Numbered from the stretch's first letter, positions 1-12,153 are shown. The stretch is 12,153 nt of DNA from Promethearchaeota archaeon (GCA_048939465.1 JBHLPL010000058.1:1-12153), one strand, 5' to 3'. The notes: generated from the sequence alone by a model not told the origin. Numbers and translations are program-made.

Positions 1-306
1 AATTGAGACGCTCTCTTCAGAGATATCAGCGTATGCTGGAATCAGATCCTTCCTGAAGTATCTCTCGAAGTCATTGACAGGATACCGATGCCAATTGCTG
101 TCCAGAATTGACTCTCCTTCTTTCCTAACACTCCTCCGTCGTAACACTCCCTTCTTCTTGTCATAGTCAAAAGCGAAGTAGATGTATGGATAATACTGTG
201 TTTTTAGCTCCTTTACCTTGCCGAACCGAAGTTCCTTTACGATTTCTTCTATTTCCCCCTCAGACTTCGTAGTAAAAGTCAATATTTTGCGGGCGTCCTT
301 ACTCAA
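1..306 (-). CDS. Hypothetical protein, 3'-truncated at the window edge (>=102 aa; not in the supplied ORF track)
   Basis: Manual translation from TTG at 306 gives a stop-free frame to position 1: MSKDARKILTFTTKSEGEIEEIVKELRFGKVKELKTQYYPYIYFAFDYDKKKGVLRRRSVRKEGESILDSNWHRYPVNDFERYFRKDLIPAYADISEESVSI. The TTG overlaps the TGA stop of the VWA ORF (TTGA, 4-nt overlap) and is the only start after an in-frame TAG. No family recognised. Confidence 0.75.
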   Translation of the reverse strand, partial: MSKDARKILTFTTKSEGEIEEIVKELRFGKVKELKTQYYPYIYFAFDYDKKKGVLRRRSVRKEGESILDSNWHRYPVNDFERYFRKDLIPAYADISEESVSI

Positions 307-1592
307 AGTCTCATCATCTCTAATCTACTTTTTCCAAAGATCGCGCTTGAAGTCGAGTCTTCCATGATTCTAGCTACGGTTTCAACATTGAACTTACCCT
401 TTCGAATGACTCCTGCGCGGAAACCGTAATACTTTCCTCCTGTTATTCTGGAAATCTCTTTAAGGAGCTGGGTTGGTGAAAGGAATTTCTCGAATTTCCA
501 TTTGTCTAAGTGCAAAGGGTTGATTGAAGTTATAGGTATTCTTTTGCGGGCCGCCCGTCTTGCTACAGCGATGACATCTGCTTGAGAGGGGCTATGCATC
601 AAGTCTCTTAAAGCGGAGCTAACTGGACGTTCTAGGGGAACATTCGCCAACCCATCACTCAACACAATAATTAGTGGAACAATGCTTGGATTACGCCTCA
701 ATTCATATTCCAAAACCTCTTGAGCCTTCAATATCCCGGATGCAAGAGGAGTAAGCCCTCCACACTTAAGATTTTTGATGCTTTTGGAAACGATCTGGAT
801 ATTTGTGGTAGGATGATGTAACACCTTAGCATGGTCACCTCTCACCATGATTAGACCTACACGGTCACGTTTCCTATAAGCAGTCCTGTGAAGAAGCAGA
901 ACGGCATTAGCAATAGTCTCCAGGAACCATATCATAGAATCGCTTGCATCAATAACAATTATGATTGAAAGAGGCGCTTTATAGGCCCGGATCTTGCTTC
1001 TCCAGTCTTGTTTCTTGATGTCAACAGCGAGCCTATTCTTGCCTCTCCCTCTGGCTGCAGCTGCCCGTATGGTCGGCCCGAAGGCTAAATCCACCAGTGG
1101 ACCCTTAGGAATCTCAAATCCTATGCTATGCCCTCGCGAAGAGGTAACAGCAACCGCTCTTTTGCCCGAAAGCCAAGCTTTCTCCCCTCTTCTGACTTTG
1201 GCTTGAATGTTTGCCCCTAGTTTGTGCCTCTCCAAGAAAGCATCAGGTTTAATGGTGACGGGATCCCCCGGAACCTTTTCTCTCTTTTCGGGGGACATCA
1301 TGATCTCCCCCGTAGGAATCCCTTTTTTATCATAACCCTTCTTTCTCACAAACATACTACTGCTGGGTTTCTTCTTCCACACTGAACTCAGTTTATCCTT
1401 CAGGCTTTCGAATTTTTTGATGACTGCCTCCTTTGTTCTATGGAGATACCCACCTCTTGGGACTCTTGGAAATCCCTTTTTTACAGAAACAGGTACCTTG
1501 GTAAATAATCCCGTTTTAGTCTTTATTGAAACACCGCCCTGTTGCTTCTCTCGCTCTTCCCAAAAGCTTGTACGGCGCTTCACTCGCTCCAT
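303..1592 (-). CDS. chlD: ChlD/BchD-type C-terminal module: basic linker plus von Willebrand A (VWA) domain; possibly the frameshifted second half of a chlD-like gene
   Basis: Intact MIDAS: VIDASDSM (DxSxS, 936-950), GGLTPLASG, VLSDGLAN. Also YRKRDRVGLI and RGH..EIPKG..DLAFGPTIRAAA, typical of the ChlD/BchD C-terminal region. There is no SD before ATG 1592, and the frame is open upstream to 1646. Confidence 0.85.
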   Translation of the reverse strand: MERVKRRTSFWEEREKQQGGVSIKTKTGLFTKVPVSVKKGFPRVPRGGYLHRTKEAVIKKFESLKDKLSSVWKKKPSSSMFVRKKGYDKKGIPTGEIMMSPEKREKVPGDPVTIKPDAFLERHKLGANIQAKVRRGEKAWLSGKRAVAVTSSRGHSIGFEIPKGPLVDLAFGPTIRAAAARGRGKNRLAVDIKKQDWRSKIRAYKAPLSIIIVIDASDSMIWFLETIANAVLLLHRTAYRKRDRVGLIMVRGDHAKVLHHPTTNIQIVSKSIKNLKCGGLTPLASGILKAQEVLEYELRRNPSIVPLIIVLSDGLANVPLERPVSSALRDLMHSPSQADVIAVARRAARKRIPITSINPLHLDKWKFEKFLSPTQLLKEISRITGGKYYGFRAGVIRKGKFNVETVARIMEDSTSSAIFGKSRLEMMRL

Positions 1593-1594
1593 TT

Positions 1595-1647
1595 GCTGCT
1601 TATAGATGTCAAGGTCAGCTTTCGCGAAAAAACTGCCTGGTCTCCTT
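1595..1647 (-). other. Candidate programmed frameshift cassette (+1 or -2) linking the chlI-like and VWA ORFs
   Basis: Minus strand reads AAGGAG(1647-1642) ACC AGG CAG TTT TTT(1632-1627) CGC GAA AGC TGA. The +1 frame (TTC GCG AAA GCT GAC...) is continuous with the VWA ORF. A weak GCTG-AC-CTT...AAG-CAGC hairpin lies at 1619-1595. Confidence 0.5.
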
Positions 1648-2682
1648 TACGCTCTTCTTGAATGCCTCGTTAATCTGTTCTGCTGAAGCCGGCTCCTCAT
1701 AACCGCCCAGTCTGGTTCTATGCTGAAGGGCGAGCTGAGACGCCCAGTTTATATCCTCAAGTTGCACAGTACTCCTCCCTTCATAAGCAGCCAGTGTTTT
1801 TGCTGTCGTGACGATAATGATGTCTGGACGATGTCCGTCAATGCCCAACAGCGTGCACATCCTTGCTACGACGTGGAGGATTCCATCTGGTATTTCGACT
1901 CTGCCTAGCAGCTGGCGTGCGTTTGCTATTCTGCCCTGAACTTCCTTCTCCTTCTCTTTCCAATTACTATAAAACTCCTCAGGATGTTCGGAAAACTCCA
2001 TGTTACGCTTGATGACCTCGACTCTCATCCCCTCGTCAGTTAGTCCCCCGATTGAAACCGATAGCGGCAGACGGTCAAGTAGCTGAGGTCGCAACTCCCC
2101 CTCTTCCGGATTCATGGTTCCCACAAGCACGAATCTGGATGGATGAGAAACTGAGACTCCTTCTCTTTCGACATAATTCCATCCGAGCGCTGCAGCGTCG
2201 AGAATAACATCAACAATATTGTCCGGCAAGAGATTAATCTCATCAACATACAGAATACTCTGGTTTGCCCTGGCAAGTATTCCTGGTTGAAGGGCAAGAA
2301 CTCCCTTAGTGAGGGCCTTCTCAACGTCTAAAGTGCCTACAACCATGTCCTCGGTAGCTCCTAGCGGCAAGGTCACAACTCCCATTCTTTTCTTTTTTGT
2401 TGTAAGCTTCCCCTTTGCGCCGCTTTTCTCCCTGCAGACTTCACACATATTTGTGGTATCGTGAGGGCTACAGTTGAATGGACACTCACTTGAAACTTCG
2501 ATCGGAGGGAGCAAACCAGCAAGTCCTCGAACCAGGGTTGATTTCCCGCTGCCTTTTTCACCCCGGATCAGCACTCCTCCAATACGCGGATTGATGGCAT
2601 TGAGTATCAGTGCGATTTTGGAAGGCTCATGATTGACAAAAGCCGTGAATGGGAAAACAATTCTACTAGCTCTTTCTGCCAA
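1615..2682 (-). CDS. chlI: ChlI/BchI-type chelatase-family AAA+ ATPase (355 aa), or N-terminal half of a frameshifted chlD-like gene
   Basis: N-terminal [24 protein letters not shown]; Walker [10 protein letters not shown]; Cys insert CPFNC-x8-CEVC (C67/71/80/83); Walker [10 protein letters not shown]; [17 protein letters not shown] (sensor 1/Arg finger); GHRPDI. TTG start with AAGGAG 9 nt upstream. The metal substrate cannot be assigned from this window. Confidence 0.92.
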
Positions 2683-2691
2683 AACCCTAAT

Positions 2692-2697
2692 CTCCTT
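2692..2697 (-). promoter_or_regulatory. Shine-Dalgarno-like site of the chlI-like gene
   Basis: AAGGAG 9 nt upstream of TTG 2682. Confidence 0.6.
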
Positions 2698-4260: not shown

Positions 4261-4303
4261 TCTGGTGCTCATATTGAATTATAAGGAAAAAAAAGGCGAT
4301 AAT

Positions 4304-7285
4304 ATGAGGAAAAAGCTTTTTACAACCACCTTTCTCTTGGCATTTCTCGTAATGACGTTGATACCCCTTAGCGTTGTGAGATTTTCTTCCTCTTCACCGC
4401 CGCCGCCAACCACCTTCTATAAGCGGGTCTCCTTTGTGTATTCAGATCCAACCTCCTACTTGGACGAATACGCCCTTTTGGCATCGATACCTGCCAACGT
4501 TTTTTGGGATGCGGCCGGAAGCGTATATACTTCCCCCATCATATTTGGTGAGTCGCAGGCAGGGAGGTACCTGCTCGAAGACTGGAATACTTACTGCAAT
4601 CGCTGGGGCGGAATTGATTATGCTGACTATATTGGTCCATACAGCAGCAATTACATAAGTGCGATGCAAACTTACCTTGGTACACCAAACTATGCCCAGA
4701 TGACTGCTACAGACCCATATTCCTACGCAATGAAAATTGCCCTGAGAGACTGGGCAAATGCGACCACAGCAGTTATTGCTCCTGCTCAAACGTACTTCGG
4801 CCAACCCAATACGATATATGGCAGCTTTCAAGGCTCATACTCCAACGTCGTTCCTGGCACGTATACTACGCAAGTTCCATTTACTGGAGTGGTTTCTCCA
4901 AATGGATGGCTCAACTTCACTTTTACCGCATACAACAATGCAACAAATATGCAGGTAATACCGGGACTATGGCGGACCCTTTTGTTCCCTCCATCCTATT
5001 CTGGATGGATGTTAACAAATGAATCCTTCCCTGTAAGCGCTGGCCTTAACGTAACCTTTGTTCAAGCGTATCTAATCGATAACACTAGCAAGGTAGTCGA
5101 TTATAGCTGGAATACGCCCGGCTGGAGATGGGAATCGGCTGGCTGGAGCGGTTTCAGTGACCACATAGTATCGGCCAATGGAAATCCCGGAATGTACACA
5201 TTGGCATTCTACAGCTCAAATGCCTCTCAACTGCCTGTGAATGTGACCGGGAGTGTTCAGTTTGACATGACAGCACACAGATACAACATAACTGTTCCTG
5301 AGAATGCTGAATCCCTAAGAGTCCACCTTAACATCTCTGATCCGGCATACTACTATTTTGGTCAAAGCTATGTAAGGCTTGCACTAATCGATCCGGATGG
5401 TAATGAAATGATTGGCGATTACTTCAAGGGTGAGACCTTCAACTACGTATACAATTACGTGGATCCGTACAATGTTATCGAGAATCCAGCACCTGGCAAT
5501 TGGACCGCAATCGTTTGGTGTCTCCCGTCGGGATCTCTTACGGGGTCAACCCAGTATAATCTCGATTATGCCATTCAAAGATACCCAGCTGACAAAACGA
5601 AATATGTTGGTTCAGCCGCCAACGGGGCAGTCATAGCTTCTCTTCAGAATTCTCCGCTCCTTTATACAGCTTCAAACAGTCTGCCAGACGATACAGCCGC
5701 GGCGATAAATCGACTCGGCATAACAAATGTGATTCTTGTTGGACTAAACAACACAATTTCAACAACCGTCAAAAACAGTCTGACATCCCTCGGAGTCTCA
5801 ATAGCTACTGATCTGGCAAATATGACTTCTGTCTGCAGCTATATCCGTTCCATAAGCAATCAGCCCGATATTGCGGTAACCATCCCTGAGGACAACTTCT
5901 TTGCTGCCGCTGCCCTTGTCGGAGCCTATCACGGAGGGCCAGTTCTGCTTTTGGAGGGTAAAGGAAAGACAGTATCAAACATAGCTGAATCGGTATGGGG
6001 TCGTCTATTTGCGTCCTTATCCTCAATGACGGGATGGTATGTTACGGAAGAATACAAGTCCGCTCACTTCGTATGGATGTGTGAACTCTCAGACACCTTC
6101 TATAGCTGGATTAACAGCCTGACCCTCGATGCGCCGGGCGTAGAAACGATAATTACCGTGGCTCCGATGGATAGATTCATGACAACATTTGACCGTGCTA
6201 TCGTTGGTGGTTCAATAACCGGAAGACTTGCTGGTGACACCGCCGAAGAAGACGTGGCTTTTGAATGCAGGGCTATGCTATATCCCGCAATCGTTTATGC
6301 AAACCCCGGCTCTGGCAACGCTACAGTCTCGCTAGTTGCGTATGAACACGGTTGGCAAATCTATGATAATATGAACAATAGCATTAACGTCTTGCTAACC
6401 AATATCACTCGCGATGCCCTCAATTCCACAGGTTTCAACATCAGCTACCATATCGGGAAGTATGAGATTCTCTCTGCACTAAACAACGGAACTGCAATCT
6501 GGTCCTTCTCAGACCACGGCGACCTAGGTCCGTGGTACGATAGACGCCCGTTCGCAGAAGGTTGGCTCGGAGTGTATTCAAATGATTCTAGCTGGAGAGC
6601 TTTCGAGCTCGGTGGAACTGCCAGCAGCCCCGATTTTGATGGAAATGGCGTAGTCGATCCGTTGTCATCTGGATTCATTACATCAAACATTATCGGCAGC
6701 GATTTTGACGCCTATGTCGGGAATATCCACAGCACAGTTGTCGACTTCATGTGCTGCTGGATTGGCAGCTCAAAATTACCAGTAACCGTGATGAAACATG
6801 GCGCTGTTGCCTCTCTTGGGTCTCTCAGACTCCTGGACTTTGGCTTTGGCTATGCTTCAGCAATGTTTGTTAACCGCACTGTTCTCGGAGACACTCTCGG
6901 TGAAGCAATGATGTATGTGCTTACTGCGTGCAGTTGGAACTACTATGCACATCAAGTATCCCAGAATTTCAGCAACTGGGATCTAATCCTAGGTCATTTG
7001 AGTTTCATGAGGGCTCCTGCATTTGGAGGTGGAAGTTTGCAGTATGTACTACACGGTGACCCAGAAGTTCAGCTTATCAATCCAAACACATGGAGTGAGC
7101 CTCAGGGTGCCGGGGTGAACTCGATCAACGTAGGCGGGCATTCACCTGAGCGTGGAATCGGAGAAGAGCCCCAGCAGCCGCCGTCTGCCTTTGACCCGGT
7201 TTCAATAGGCATAGGCTTGGCCGTCGGAGTTGCAGTAGGGGTCATCATAATGTTCTCTATACTCCGGTCAAGAAAAGGATCTTAA
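4304..7285 (+). CDS. Secreted, C-terminally membrane-anchored surface protein (~993 aa): CWB2-like repeats, 2x PPC-like domains and a gingipain/peptidase C25-like (clan CD) domain
   Basis: Start moved from GTG 4265 to ATG 4304 because it gives a signal peptide (MRKKLFTTTFLLAFLVMTLIPLS) and an SD-like site. CWB2-like segments: DPYSYAMKIALRDWANATTAVIA; SPLLYTASNSLPDDTAAAINRLGITNVILVG; DNFFAAAALVGAYHGGPVLLL. C25-like motifs: TGRLAG, FSDHG (6515-6520), DFMCCWIG (6752-6757), GAVASLG, GDTLGEA, YVLHGDP (7043-7063). TM helix at 7205-7264 followed by RSRKGS. Confidence 0.85.
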   Translation: MRKKLFTTTFLLAFLVMTLIPLSVVRFSSSSPPPPTTFYKRVSFVYSDPTSYLDEYALLASIPANVFWDAAGSVYTSPIIFGESQAGRYLLEDWNTYCNRWGGIDYADYIGPYSSNYISAMQTYLGTPNYAQMTATDPYSYAMKIALRDWANATTAVIAPAQTYFGQPNTIYGSFQGSYSNVVPGTYTTQVPFTGVVSPNGWLNFTFTAYNNATNMQVIPGLWRTLLFPPSYSGWMLTNESFPVSAGLNVTFVQAYLIDNTSKVVDYSWNTPGWRWESAGWSGFSDHIVSANGNPGMYTLAFYSSNASQLPVNVTGSVQFDMTAHRYNITVPENAESLRVHLNISDPAYYYFGQSYVRLALIDPDGNEMIGDYFKGETFNYVYNYVDPYNVIENPAPGNWTAIVWCLPSGSLTGSTQYNLDYAIQRYPADKTKYVGSAANGAVIASLQNSPLLYTASNSLPDDTAAAINRLGITNVILVGLNNTISTTVKNSLTSLGVSIATDLANMTSVCSYIRSISNQPDIAVTIPEDNFFAAAALVGAYHGGPVLLLEGKGKTVSNIAESVWGRLFASLSSMTGWYVTEEYKSAHFVWMCELSDTFYSWINSLTLDAPGVETIITVAPMDRFMTTFDRAIVGGSITGRLAGDTAEEDVAFECRAMLYPAIVYANPGSGNATVSLVAYEHGWQIYDNMNNSINVLLTNITRDALNSTGFNISYHIGKYEILSALNNGTAIWSFSDHGDLGPWYDRRPFAEGWLGVYSNDSSWRAFELGGTASSPDFDGNGVVDPLSSGFITSNIIGSDFDAYVGNIHSTVVDFMCCWIGSSKLPVTVMKHGAVASLGSLRLLDFGFGYASAMFVNRTVLGDTLGEAMMYVLTACSWNYYAHQVSQNFSNWDLILGHLSFMRAPAFGGGSLQYVLHGDPEVQLINPNTWSEPQGAGVNSINVGGHSPERGIGEEPQQPPSAFDPVSIGIGLAVGVAVGVIIMFSILRSRKGS

Positions 7286-10806: not shown

Positions 10807-12153
10807 CTATACTTTCTTTACAAAACCCGGACTGGGACGGTAAAGAACCCCTTCATCAATAAGTTGCTCTATTGCTCTTTCGACAAATTCCTTTTCCAGC
10901 TCATGTTCTTGAGCGCTTTCCACAACTCGATCTACCGGAACCGCATCTCCTATTTCTTTCTCAAGTTCCATAATCAACCGGATTATTAAGTCCATTCTAT
11001 CTCGCAAGCTTTTTGGTCTACCAAGCATGATCGTATCGATATCGTACCGCCCCGTCTCTTTGTCCATACCTACCTGCCTTAGCGAAACATCAATGAGTCT
11101 GATAACGGCATCAGCGTCCTCCGCAGTTACTTCCTTCCTGAGAGCGATTCGGGCTCTCGCCTCGGCCAGCCTGATGAGTGCTTCCAGCTGTCTTGCCGTG
11201 ATTGGCACCGGGGAATCTCTATCTTCTCCTCTGGAACGCATCTCAAGATAGAATTGCTTCAATCTTTCGGCTGCCTCCTTTGTTATCATCGGACGAACGT
11301 TTCTCTTAGCGTAAGCTATGTATTTTCTCAAGATTTCGGGTTCGATTGGAGGTTCCGTGCTGCGAAGACGGTGCAGATCTAAAATGTGGTCTGAAATCCG
11401 TTTGTCGAACTCCTCTTCAGGTCTGTCGGTGATTATGAAAATCAGGTCAAAACGAGAGAGTAAGGTTACTGGGAATTTGATATTCTCTGCAGCAGAGCGG
11501 TAGGGGTTGTATCTACCGAGGGCAGGATTTGCTGCTGCCAGAATTGCCGTTCTTGCGTTGAGTGTAGCAACGATGCCTGCCTTGGCTATGCTAATCGTTT
11601 GTTGCTCCATCGCCTCATGTATTGCGACCCTGTCCTGGGGATTCATCTTGTCAAATTCATCAATACATGCGACCCCCCGATCAGCCAGGACCAGTGCTCC
11701 GGCCTCAAGAGTCATACCGCCGGTTTCGTCTCTCAAAACTGCAGCGGTATTATGTACAACTATTCCGTTAGCAATGAAATTATGTGAGTCCGGAATTGTT
11801 AGGTCATAAACATATGGTTCTTCAGCTGGGATTTCGGTCGCTTCCGTAACCTCATCCCAGAAGATATCTGAATGACATAAGCTCTTCAAAAACTCATGGC
11901 TCTTTTTGTGTTCTAGGTGTTTCTCTTTGATAGATTTGATGAGTTCTCTCCAGTATTCGACGGTTTCTGAATTTAGATGTTCTCCCCCTATCTTCAGGAG
12001 AGAGATAAAGATTCCGATAGGAACGGAAGGATTCCTTGTCCGTCTTACGAAGTATTCATAGAGCTGTGTTCTAGTGATTTTTAGCTGCTTGCATACCGTA
12101 TCCAAGGAAATGGTCCTTCTGATTTCCCGGTAAAGCTTGTTTCTTGAACTATG
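10807..12153 (-). CDS. mcm: MCM replicative helicase, 5'-truncated at the window edge and interrupted by an intein (C-extein 10807-11748)
   Basis: TAAVLRDETGGMTLEAGALVLADRGVACIDEFDKM (Walker B); HEAMEQQTISIAKAGIVATLNARTAILAAANP; Arg finger LLSRFDLIF; sensor 2 ITARQLEALIRL; C-terminal winged helix. The frame is open from 12153 (HSSRNKLYREIRRTISL...), so TTG 12105 in the ORF track is not a real start. Confidence 0.97.
   Translation of the reverse strand, partial: HSSRNKLYREIRRTISLDTVCKQLKITRTQLYEYFVRRTRNPSVPIGIFISLLKIGGEHLNSETVEYWRELIKSIKEKHLEHKKSHEFLKSLCHSDIFWDEVTEATEIPAEEPYVYDLTIPDSHNFIANGIVVHNTAAVLRDETGGMTLEAGALVLADRGVACIDEFDKMNPQDRVAIHEAMEQQTISIAKAGIVATLNARTAILAAANPALGRYNPYRSAAENIKFPVTLLSRFDLIFIITDRPEEEFDKRISDHILDLHRLRSTEPPIEPEILRKYIAYAKRNVRPMITKEAAERLKQFYLEMRSRGEDRDSPVPITARQLEALIRLAEARARIALRKEVTAEDADAVIRLIDVSLRQVGMDKETGRYDIDTIMLGRPKSLRDRMDLIIRLIMELEKEIGDAVPVDRVVESAQEHELEKEFVERAIEQLIDEGVLYRPSPGFVKKV
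11749..12153 (-). mobile_element. Intein in MCM (C-terminal part only), inserted immediately before TAAV
   Basis: Block F/G: DIFWDEV...EEPYVYDLTIPDSHNFIANGIVV-HN, with terminal His-Asn (11754-11749) followed by Thr +1 (11748-11746). The site before TAAV corresponds, from memory, to the recurrent MCM/CDC21-b site. Confidence 0.95.

Follow-up and report, generated by a model that had tools for sequence, protein, structure and literature searches.

The window, the whole 12,153-nucleotide stretch of DNA that was analysed, belongs to an Asgard (Odin-type) metagenome-assembled genome of 1.96 Mb that is 91% complete, and encodes on its minus strand a ChlI/BchI-like AAA+ ATPase followed, one base out of frame, by a protein with a VWA domain (Table 1). 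The last codons of the AAA+ ORF are CAG TTT TTT CGC GAA AGC TGA, while the VWA frame, which is +1 with respect to the AAA+ frame, opens at 1646 after a TAA at 1649-1647 and closes with the stop codon at 305-303. Eighteen open codons of the +1 frame precede its first ATG (1592-1590), with no ATG, GTG or TTG among them, and joining the two frames at the U run gives a protein of 352 + 440 = 792 aa. The initial annotation had described the ends of the ORFs, the opening of the +1 frame into the VWA ORF and products of 355 and about 792 aa, all of which proved correct when re-read from the sequence; equally confirmed were the positions of an AAGGAG hexamer 9 nt before the run (1647-1642) and of the same hexamer at the same spacing before the TTG start of the AAA+ gene (2697-2692).

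Table 1. Features of the AAA+/VWA locus, in window coordinates.
Feature	Position	Strand	Basis or remark
AAA+ ATPase ORF (frame 0), 355 aa, ChlI/BchI-like, TTG start; short product	1615..2682	-	Pfam and NCBIfam matches
VWA-domain ORF from first ATG, 429 aa; C-terminal part of the proposed long product	303..1592	-	Pfam VWA_2, TIGR02442, TIGR02031
Proposed shift site UUU UUU CGC; T6 at 1632-1627, rare Arg codon CGC at 1626-1624	1624..1632	-	read from sequence, conservation
Frame-0 stop TGA, two codons past CGC	1615..1617	-	read from sequence
Start-less open stretch of the +1 frame ahead of the first ATG	1593..1646	-	no ATG, GTG or TTG
SD-like AAGGAG, 9 nt 5' of the AAA+ TTG start	2692..2697	-	read from sequence; kept in L056
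Internal AAGGAG, 9 nt 5' of T6; probably not a conserved signal	1642..1647	-	present in window, L002 and L060 only
Next ORF of the operon, TTG start overlapping the VWA stop as TTGA	1..306	-	same layout in L033, L002 and L056

The ATG at 1592 lies 22 nt past the frame-0 TGA, and no SD-like motif is present in its 20 upstream bases, as the initial annotation had also noticed. While the VWA ORF and the next ORF of the operon, of 239 aa, meet in a classical TTGA overlap of stop and start, no overlapping start and no SD are present at the AAA+/VWA junction. The gene order malic enzyme, AAA+, VWA and 239-aa protein is conserved within the genus only, and so is the 239-aa protein itself (window 1-306, minus strand; L002:782-1501), for which no Pfam or NCBIfam match was found. 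Elsewhere the window encodes a Hel308-type helicase and an archaeal MCM with an intein, the splicing domain of which is situated directly before the MCM P-loop domain in an ORF that exits the window (10807-12153, minus strand), and a 1006-aa ORF (4265-7285, plus strand) that gave a sub-threshold CW_binding_2 match only. Even with introns allowed, ARAGORN identified no more than 25 tRNA genes in the genome despite its completeness of 91%.

With respect to domain content, the AAA+ ORF matches the Pfam families AAA_lid_2, Mg_chelatase and AAA_5, has an intact Walker A (GEKGSGKST) and Walker B (ILYVDE) motif and aligns with positions 1-334 of the 337 positions of TIGR02030 BchI-ChlI at 402 bits (cut-off 467) and with positions 1-323 of TIGR02442, 'putative cobaltochelatase', at 460 bits. 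The VWA ORF displays Pfam VWA_2 at residues 210-314 with a readable MIDAS motif, DASDS, and aligns with positions 403-592 of TIGR02442 at 153 bits and with positions 337-597 of TIGR02031 BchD-ChlD. The two ORFs consequently correspond to one half each of a single NCBIfam model, TIGR02442, with scores of 460 + 153 that stay under its cut-off of 779. As the curated cut-offs of both TIGR02030 and TIGR02442 are missed, the protein pair is a relative, not an equivalog. Its close homologues are mostly fused proteins of 600-860 aa. A CobN/ChlH large subunit (PF02514) was not matched in the 91%-complete genome, while control genomes gave matches, nor was a second ChlI-like gene found in the genome. 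Between Walker A and Walker B, the AAA+ protein carries a four-cysteine insert, CPFNC...CEVC (window 2440-2500, minus strand; residues ~61-85), also observed in the fused relative L004, which may be a small zinc-binding element.

The break point in the genus and across the Asgard clade

The T6 run was assessed on Logan contigs from three independent studies that cover two strains. A depth-15 contig from a mangrove metagenome covers the whole stretch gap-free and has T6 without indel, as have contigs of the same strain and of a strain of about 90% identity from two more studies. Because independent contigs of three studies agree, T6 is no sequencing or assembly artefact, and the alternative of a T5 run misread as T6, which the initial annotation had kept in view, is refuted. 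More broadly, errors of sequencing or assembly, or recent decay into a (pseudo)gene, would mean that the true or ancestral gene was read in a single frame and that the break has no function. Homopolymers are indeed classic sites of errors and indels, and fused relatives exist; yet beyond the agreement of the contigs, the break and both ORFs are intact in four sequences of the genus at 81-90% protein identity, and the same break with both ORFs intact recurs in 13 genes of four other families, which leaves this explanation with a practically negligible probability. The genus set comprises the window, L033 (90% protein identity), L002 together with L056-L059 (81%) and L060; these four diverged sequences keep TTTTTTCGC, two more codons, the TGA and the open +1 frame.

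A search of 400 Asgard genomes and public contigs retrieved 45 homologues of the VWA part, 22 of which form one clade of the maximum-likelihood tree (SH-aLRT 99). With three later-added loci, the clade contains 17 split genes, which belong to five GTDB families, namely f1 (window, L033, L002, L060), f15 (L021, L034), f17 (L007, L008, L039, L042, L061), f32 (L043, L049, L041, L048, L063) and f5 (L062). The break point is an in-frame TTT TTT CGN (N being C, T or A) in each of the 17, always with the VWA frame in +1 and open across the run, and no split gene of the clade breaks elsewhere. Sixteen of the genes have their frame-0 stop 0-5 codons past CGN; in L063 it comes after 17. Alignment with orthologues had been proposed as a check by the initial annotation, and the break and UUU UUU C passed it in all split genes of this clade.

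In the junction alignment (A3) of 24 sequences, 17 split and 7 fused, TTTTTTC provides the sole invariant columns, and the conservation of the following G exceeds 90%. TTT encodes both Phe residues in 24 of 24 genes, though several of these genes use TTC about as often. The residue that follows FF in the +1 frame varies (A, V, D or E), while its first base is always G, and thereby the frame-0 CGN codon is kept; AGA and AGG dominate among the Arg codons of all these genes. Split junctions are uniform, whereas fused junctions are heterogeneous: the fused clade-mates L022, L023, L024, L038 and L070 read FFRQ, FFRRE or FFRVRK with CGT in frame, L025 has FFVQER, which is the +1 reading (codons GAT TTT TTC GTT), and L026 has FFH on a T7 run. 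The tree requires at least 4-5 changes between the split and the fused state. Together with the uniform split junction, this means that either the site has been kept since the ancestor of the clade with several independent fusions, or the same site has been hit repeatedly, and either history speaks for a viable and long-lived split state.

Beyond these genomes, a metagenome search gave no relatives with a single protein as query and only copies of known loci with an alignment as query, and a search of 1.84 billion representative proteins added only two recognizable members of the clade, the fused P0023 and the split P0025, which ends FFRG. BLAST comparison of the window with P0023, the nearest fused protein, leaves the register ambiguous in the charged linker. 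In a sister clade (L046, L047, L050 and L064-L069; families f22, f25 and f26), the VWA ORF is located in the -1 frame behind runs of A9-A11; there, the tree likewise mixes fused and split genes, and the poly-A run is of the published type.

The codons directly past the run bear on the question whether the +1 frame is translated from upstream. The first canonical start of the +1 frame lies 43 codons past the run in L039 and L061, 17 codons in L021, 13 codons in the window, L002 and L060 and 12 codons in L042, and in all seven genes no start occurs between the upstream +1-frame stop and the run. Three of these start-less stretches (L061, L039 and L021) have recognizable counterparts in relatives: L061 FFVEDETCWDEDT resembles FFRDSETCLDEDT of the fused L070, L039 IPERIRKIPKKS resembles IPDQIRKLPRKS of L008 with the common pattern IP..IRK.P.KS, and FFVQREGKYVL of L021 resembles FFRREGEKYVL of the fused L024. 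In the pairs L061/L070 and L021/L024, the number of residues from FF to the next shared block is equal, and the DNA differs by exactly one base.

Substitution patterns point in the same direction as the start-less stretches. L021 and L034 differ by two changes within the overlap, both of which are silent in the +1 frame yet replace the residue in frame 0. Within the genus of the window, 12 substitution events were counted in the 11 codons past the run (four sequences), of which 7 fall on +1-frame third positions and are all synonymous, a bias that for this genus alone is marginal (binomial p ~0.07); the frame-0 tail meanwhile varies between RES, RKS and RTS. Seven split genes, however, possess a possible start at the run or shortly ahead of it. 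In L034, L043, L049 and L062 this is a GTG immediately following TTC; L007 and L008 have an ATG or GTG 2-4 codons upstream of the run, and in L033 an ATG lies 13 codons upstream.

A candidate +1 shift and its alternatives

We consider the two ORFs to be probably one recoded ChlD-type gene, expressed in part through a programmed +1 ribosomal shift at UUU_UUU_CGC; the broader statement that recoding of any kind takes place at the run, slippage of the polymerase included, deserves a little more confidence. The anatomy of the locus, the genuine T6 run, the conservation of site and frame relation throughout the clade and the rarity of the codon are observed; the occurrence of the shift, its ribosomal nature and its efficiency are inferred. 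Unshifted ribosomes would produce the 355-aa ChlI-like AAA+ ATPase ending FFRES. A fraction of the ribosomes would pause while the second UUU, paired with tRNA-Phe (anticodon GAA), occupies the P site and the rare CGC the A site, whereupon tRNA-Phe would re-pair one base forward on UUC and translation would go on in the +1 frame. The shifted product of about 792 aa would consist of AAA+ module, linker and VWA domain and thus have a ChlD-like architecture.

The components of the proposed site have precedents. [quoted passage not shown] Each of the 17 split genes has a C directly behind an in-frame UUU, and the A-site codon of the window is rare in its host, CGC being the second-rarest sense codon of the genome with 3.8 occurrences per 1000 and CGT the fourth-rarest. 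In-frame TTT_CGN occurs approximately 123 times in the 747 long ORFs of the genome and is not clearly avoided. As the motif is common in other genes, it cannot in its short form alone give efficient shifting, and the efficiency of the shift may therefore be low or dependent on the full U6 run. Genome-wide recoding at TTT_CG was ruled out, since the present locus holds the only TTTCG in the genome that is flanked by long ORFs in frames 0 and +1.

The accessory signals that the initial annotation had proposed did not withstand comparison. AAGGAG precedes the run in the window, L002 and L060, is replaced by CAGGAA in the 90%-identical L033 and is absent in all other families; as a stimulator of the shift it was ruled out on these grounds. 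The weak hairpin downstream of the run is no better than those of shuffled sequences, with z = -0.09 for the 60 nt past the run and z = +0.13 for the 91 nt around it, and as a general signal it was excluded by z values from -1.6 to +1.05 in 13 genes. An apparent compensatory pair (CUUG/UAAG in the window, CUCG/UGAG in L033) is lost in L002 and L060. A dnaX-like arrangement or a -2 slip, also suggested at the outset, is not needed. Cumulatively, neither the junction alignment nor the fold tests revealed a conserved element besides the U6-CGN site. Intergenic conservation was uninformative as a neutral yardstick, because the promoter region of the AAA+ gene is itself kept well in the genus. RNAfold pairs the U run of the window (1612-1638, minus strand) with the following GAAAGCUG into an 11-bp hairpin with a UCGC loop, which encloses slip site and stop codon, loses strength in L033 and does not stand out significantly from shuffled sequences. 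The central proposal of the initial annotation, one gene with a ChlI-size and a ChlD-size product, hence gained the comparative data of 17 split genes in five families and lost its accessory signals.

The main rival reading, which we regard as rather unlikely, holds that the locus consists of two separate, translationally coupled genes, where re-initiation at ATG 1592 or at a near-cognate codon gives a free 429-aa VWA protein that binds the ATPase ring as in MoxR/VWA pairs, and where TTTTTTCG owes its conservation to FFR as the preserved terminus of the ATPase module. In other families AAA+ ATPases commonly have free-standing VWA partners, as in the MoxR and CbbQ/CbbO systems; gene callers likewise annotate two genes here. 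An ATG does exist at a distance of 22 nt past the stop codon, and a canonical start is found at or near the run in 7 of the 17 split genes; the ATG of the window is, however, accompanied by neither an SD nor a stop/start overlap, in contrast to the junction that follows in the operon, and elsewhere 43 (L039, L061) or 17 (L021) codons past the run that resemble those of relatives come without a start. FFR is in frame in the fused L022, L023, L024, L038 and L070, such that part of the conservation of TTTTTTCG could be due to the FFR peptide and common descent. Against two genes speak the synonymous choices, always TTT TTT and always CGN, held across saturated divergence; nor is there a need for the VWA frame of an independent gene to be open back across the run, as it is in 17 of 17 split genes. 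Conservation of the +1 codons next to frame-0 tails that are unconserved after FFR equally speaks against this reading.

If the frames are joined by recoding, the polymerase rather than the ribosome could be the agent, dropping one U or adding two in some of the transcripts of T6. Such transcriptional slippage would leave the same expected product, QFFAK, and finds support in the invariance of the whole homopolymer, which goes beyond the UUU_C needed for a P-site slip, as well as in the A9-A11 runs of the sister clade, where polymerase slippage is a recognized alternative. Six bases are nevertheless short, since efficient slippage usually starts from about 8-9 A or T (PMC5009743), the run is never longer in split genes, and the invariant CG that forms the rare Arg codon is left unexplained; we consider slippage improbable. 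More remote still, and very improbable, is a tRNA-type micro-intron of 3n+1 bases with a bulge-helix-bulge (BHB) motif that spans the stop codon and joins the frames upon removal. Under very loose rules a weak, AU-rich 16-nt candidate lies over the run. The canonical rule (helix, 3-nt bulge, 4-bp helix, 3-nt bulge, helix, around a 3n+1 insert that removes the stop), in turn, gives no frame-joining candidate in the window, L033, L002 or L060, and its five matches in other loci are located at non-homologous places and are as many as chance predicts. As the one-base offset between split and fused genes in L021/L024 and L061/L070 leaves no room for an intron, and a canonical candidate is missing in the genus, the BHB intron was rejected for the AAA+/VWA junction. 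A fairly canonical 19-nt BHB just past the run in L062 (1637-1655; genome G009, f5) with outer helix GAGG/UCUC, central helix UAGA/UCUA and 3-nt bulges, spans both frame-0 TAG stops, and excising it would bring the two frames together; as a single match it is within chance expectation.

Wider meaning and comparison with known systems

A programmed +1 ribosomal shift at the U6-CGN site, the reading preferred above, might have a wider dimension. Tentatively, and with more doubt than confidence, UUU_UUU_CGN can be viewed as an ancient +1 site selected clade-wide in Asgard archaea, with the run perhaps acting as a two-way switch and lineages having toggled between the layouts repeatedly. Split genes may shift into the VWA frame to produce the long subunit. 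The fused clade-mates (L022-L026, L038 and L070) keep the T6 or T7 run unaltered at the AAA+/linker boundary, and both of their off-frames end within 4-23 codons; fused genes might therefore shift out of frame and produce the short ChlI-like subunit, the reverse of the split layout. Lineages may have moved between the two layouts through one- or two-base changes beside the run. If true, a conserved +1 programmed frameshift would have been recognized for the first time in a family of cellular archaeal genes.

If the shift itself is real, the design of two chlD-type subunits from one gene would have evolved at least twice in Asgard archaea with opposite slip directions, by U6-CGN and +1 in the present clade and by A9-A11 and -1 in its sister clade. 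About 17 gene pairs annotated as 'AAA ATPase' and 'VWA protein' would then be better annotated as one recoded gene each. The cassette is short and structure-free and suited to reporter tests. A real shift would moreover add a +1 site to archaeal recoding, where one -1 case has been demonstrated (PMC8211752).

Two mechanistic parallels are found outside of the archaea and outside of the chelatases. The prfB (RF2) site CUU_UGA_C shares with the proposed site a +1 shift by P-site re-pairing during a slow A site, and in L007, L008, L039 and L042 a UGA even follows directly after CGN. In prfB, however, it is the stop codon that makes the A site slow, and the shift requires an SD 3 nt upstream, whereas here the A-site codon is the sense codon CGN and the AAGGAG 9 nt upstream is not conserved. 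With PA-X the junction has in common the P-site UUU that would re-pair on UUC, the rare CGN Arg codon in the A site and the dispensability of strong RNA structure. The PA-X site differs in being viral and decoded by eukaryotic ribosomes, and in its preceding codon, which is UCC there and UUU here. The efficiency of PA-X frameshifting is said to be about 1%.

Among cellular archaeal genes, the only demonstrated programmed frameshift is that of fucA1 of Saccharolobus solfataricus (PMC1616953; PMC8211752), and no +1 case had been demonstrated as of a 2021 review (PMC8211752). Like the present locus, fucA1 is a cellular archaeal gene split into two ORFs from which one protein is made by recoding; it differs in shifting by -1 on A_AAA_AAT, where rare codons flank the site and a stem-loop is present.

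In gene architecture, the locus agrees with the frameshifted chlD genes. A complete ChlI-type AAA+ module is followed by an out-of-frame ORF with a ChlD-type linker, a VWA domain and a MIDAS motif, the break lies at the boundary of ChlI and linker, the slippery site is conserved among orthologues, and fused homologues exist. Published cases predominantly shift by -1 on A runs, whereas here a +1 shift on UUU_UUU_CGN is proposed in Asgard archaea. A study by Antonov from 2020 in MBE reportedly also deals with frameshifted chlD genes. It lay outside our literature search, which found nothing that links Asgard archaea, chelatase and frameshifting. Frameshifted 'magnesium chelatase' genes were described in 2013 (Antonov et al., PMC3711429), and the validated and archaeal cases, known from Methanocaldococcus, Methanococcus, Pseudomonas and other taxa, slip by -1 on A_AAA_AAR or poly-A (PMC3711429; PMC5009743). 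According to Kuznetsov et al. (2022, PMC9227772), +1 cases exist and are rarer, and some carriers of frameshifted chlD, termed 'stage 1' genomes, possess neither the large subunit nor the B12 and chlorophyll pathways, a likeness to the present host, in the 91%-complete genome of which no large subunit was matched. The earlier statement that frameshifted chlD genes have been reported, archaea included, is borne out by this literature (PMC3711429; PMC9227772), and of the suggestion that the cassette is undescribed in this lineage, the part that concerns the lineage is plausible, while frameshifted chlD as such is published. What would be new here is the proposed +1, U6-CGN form of an already published type of frameshifted chlD gene.
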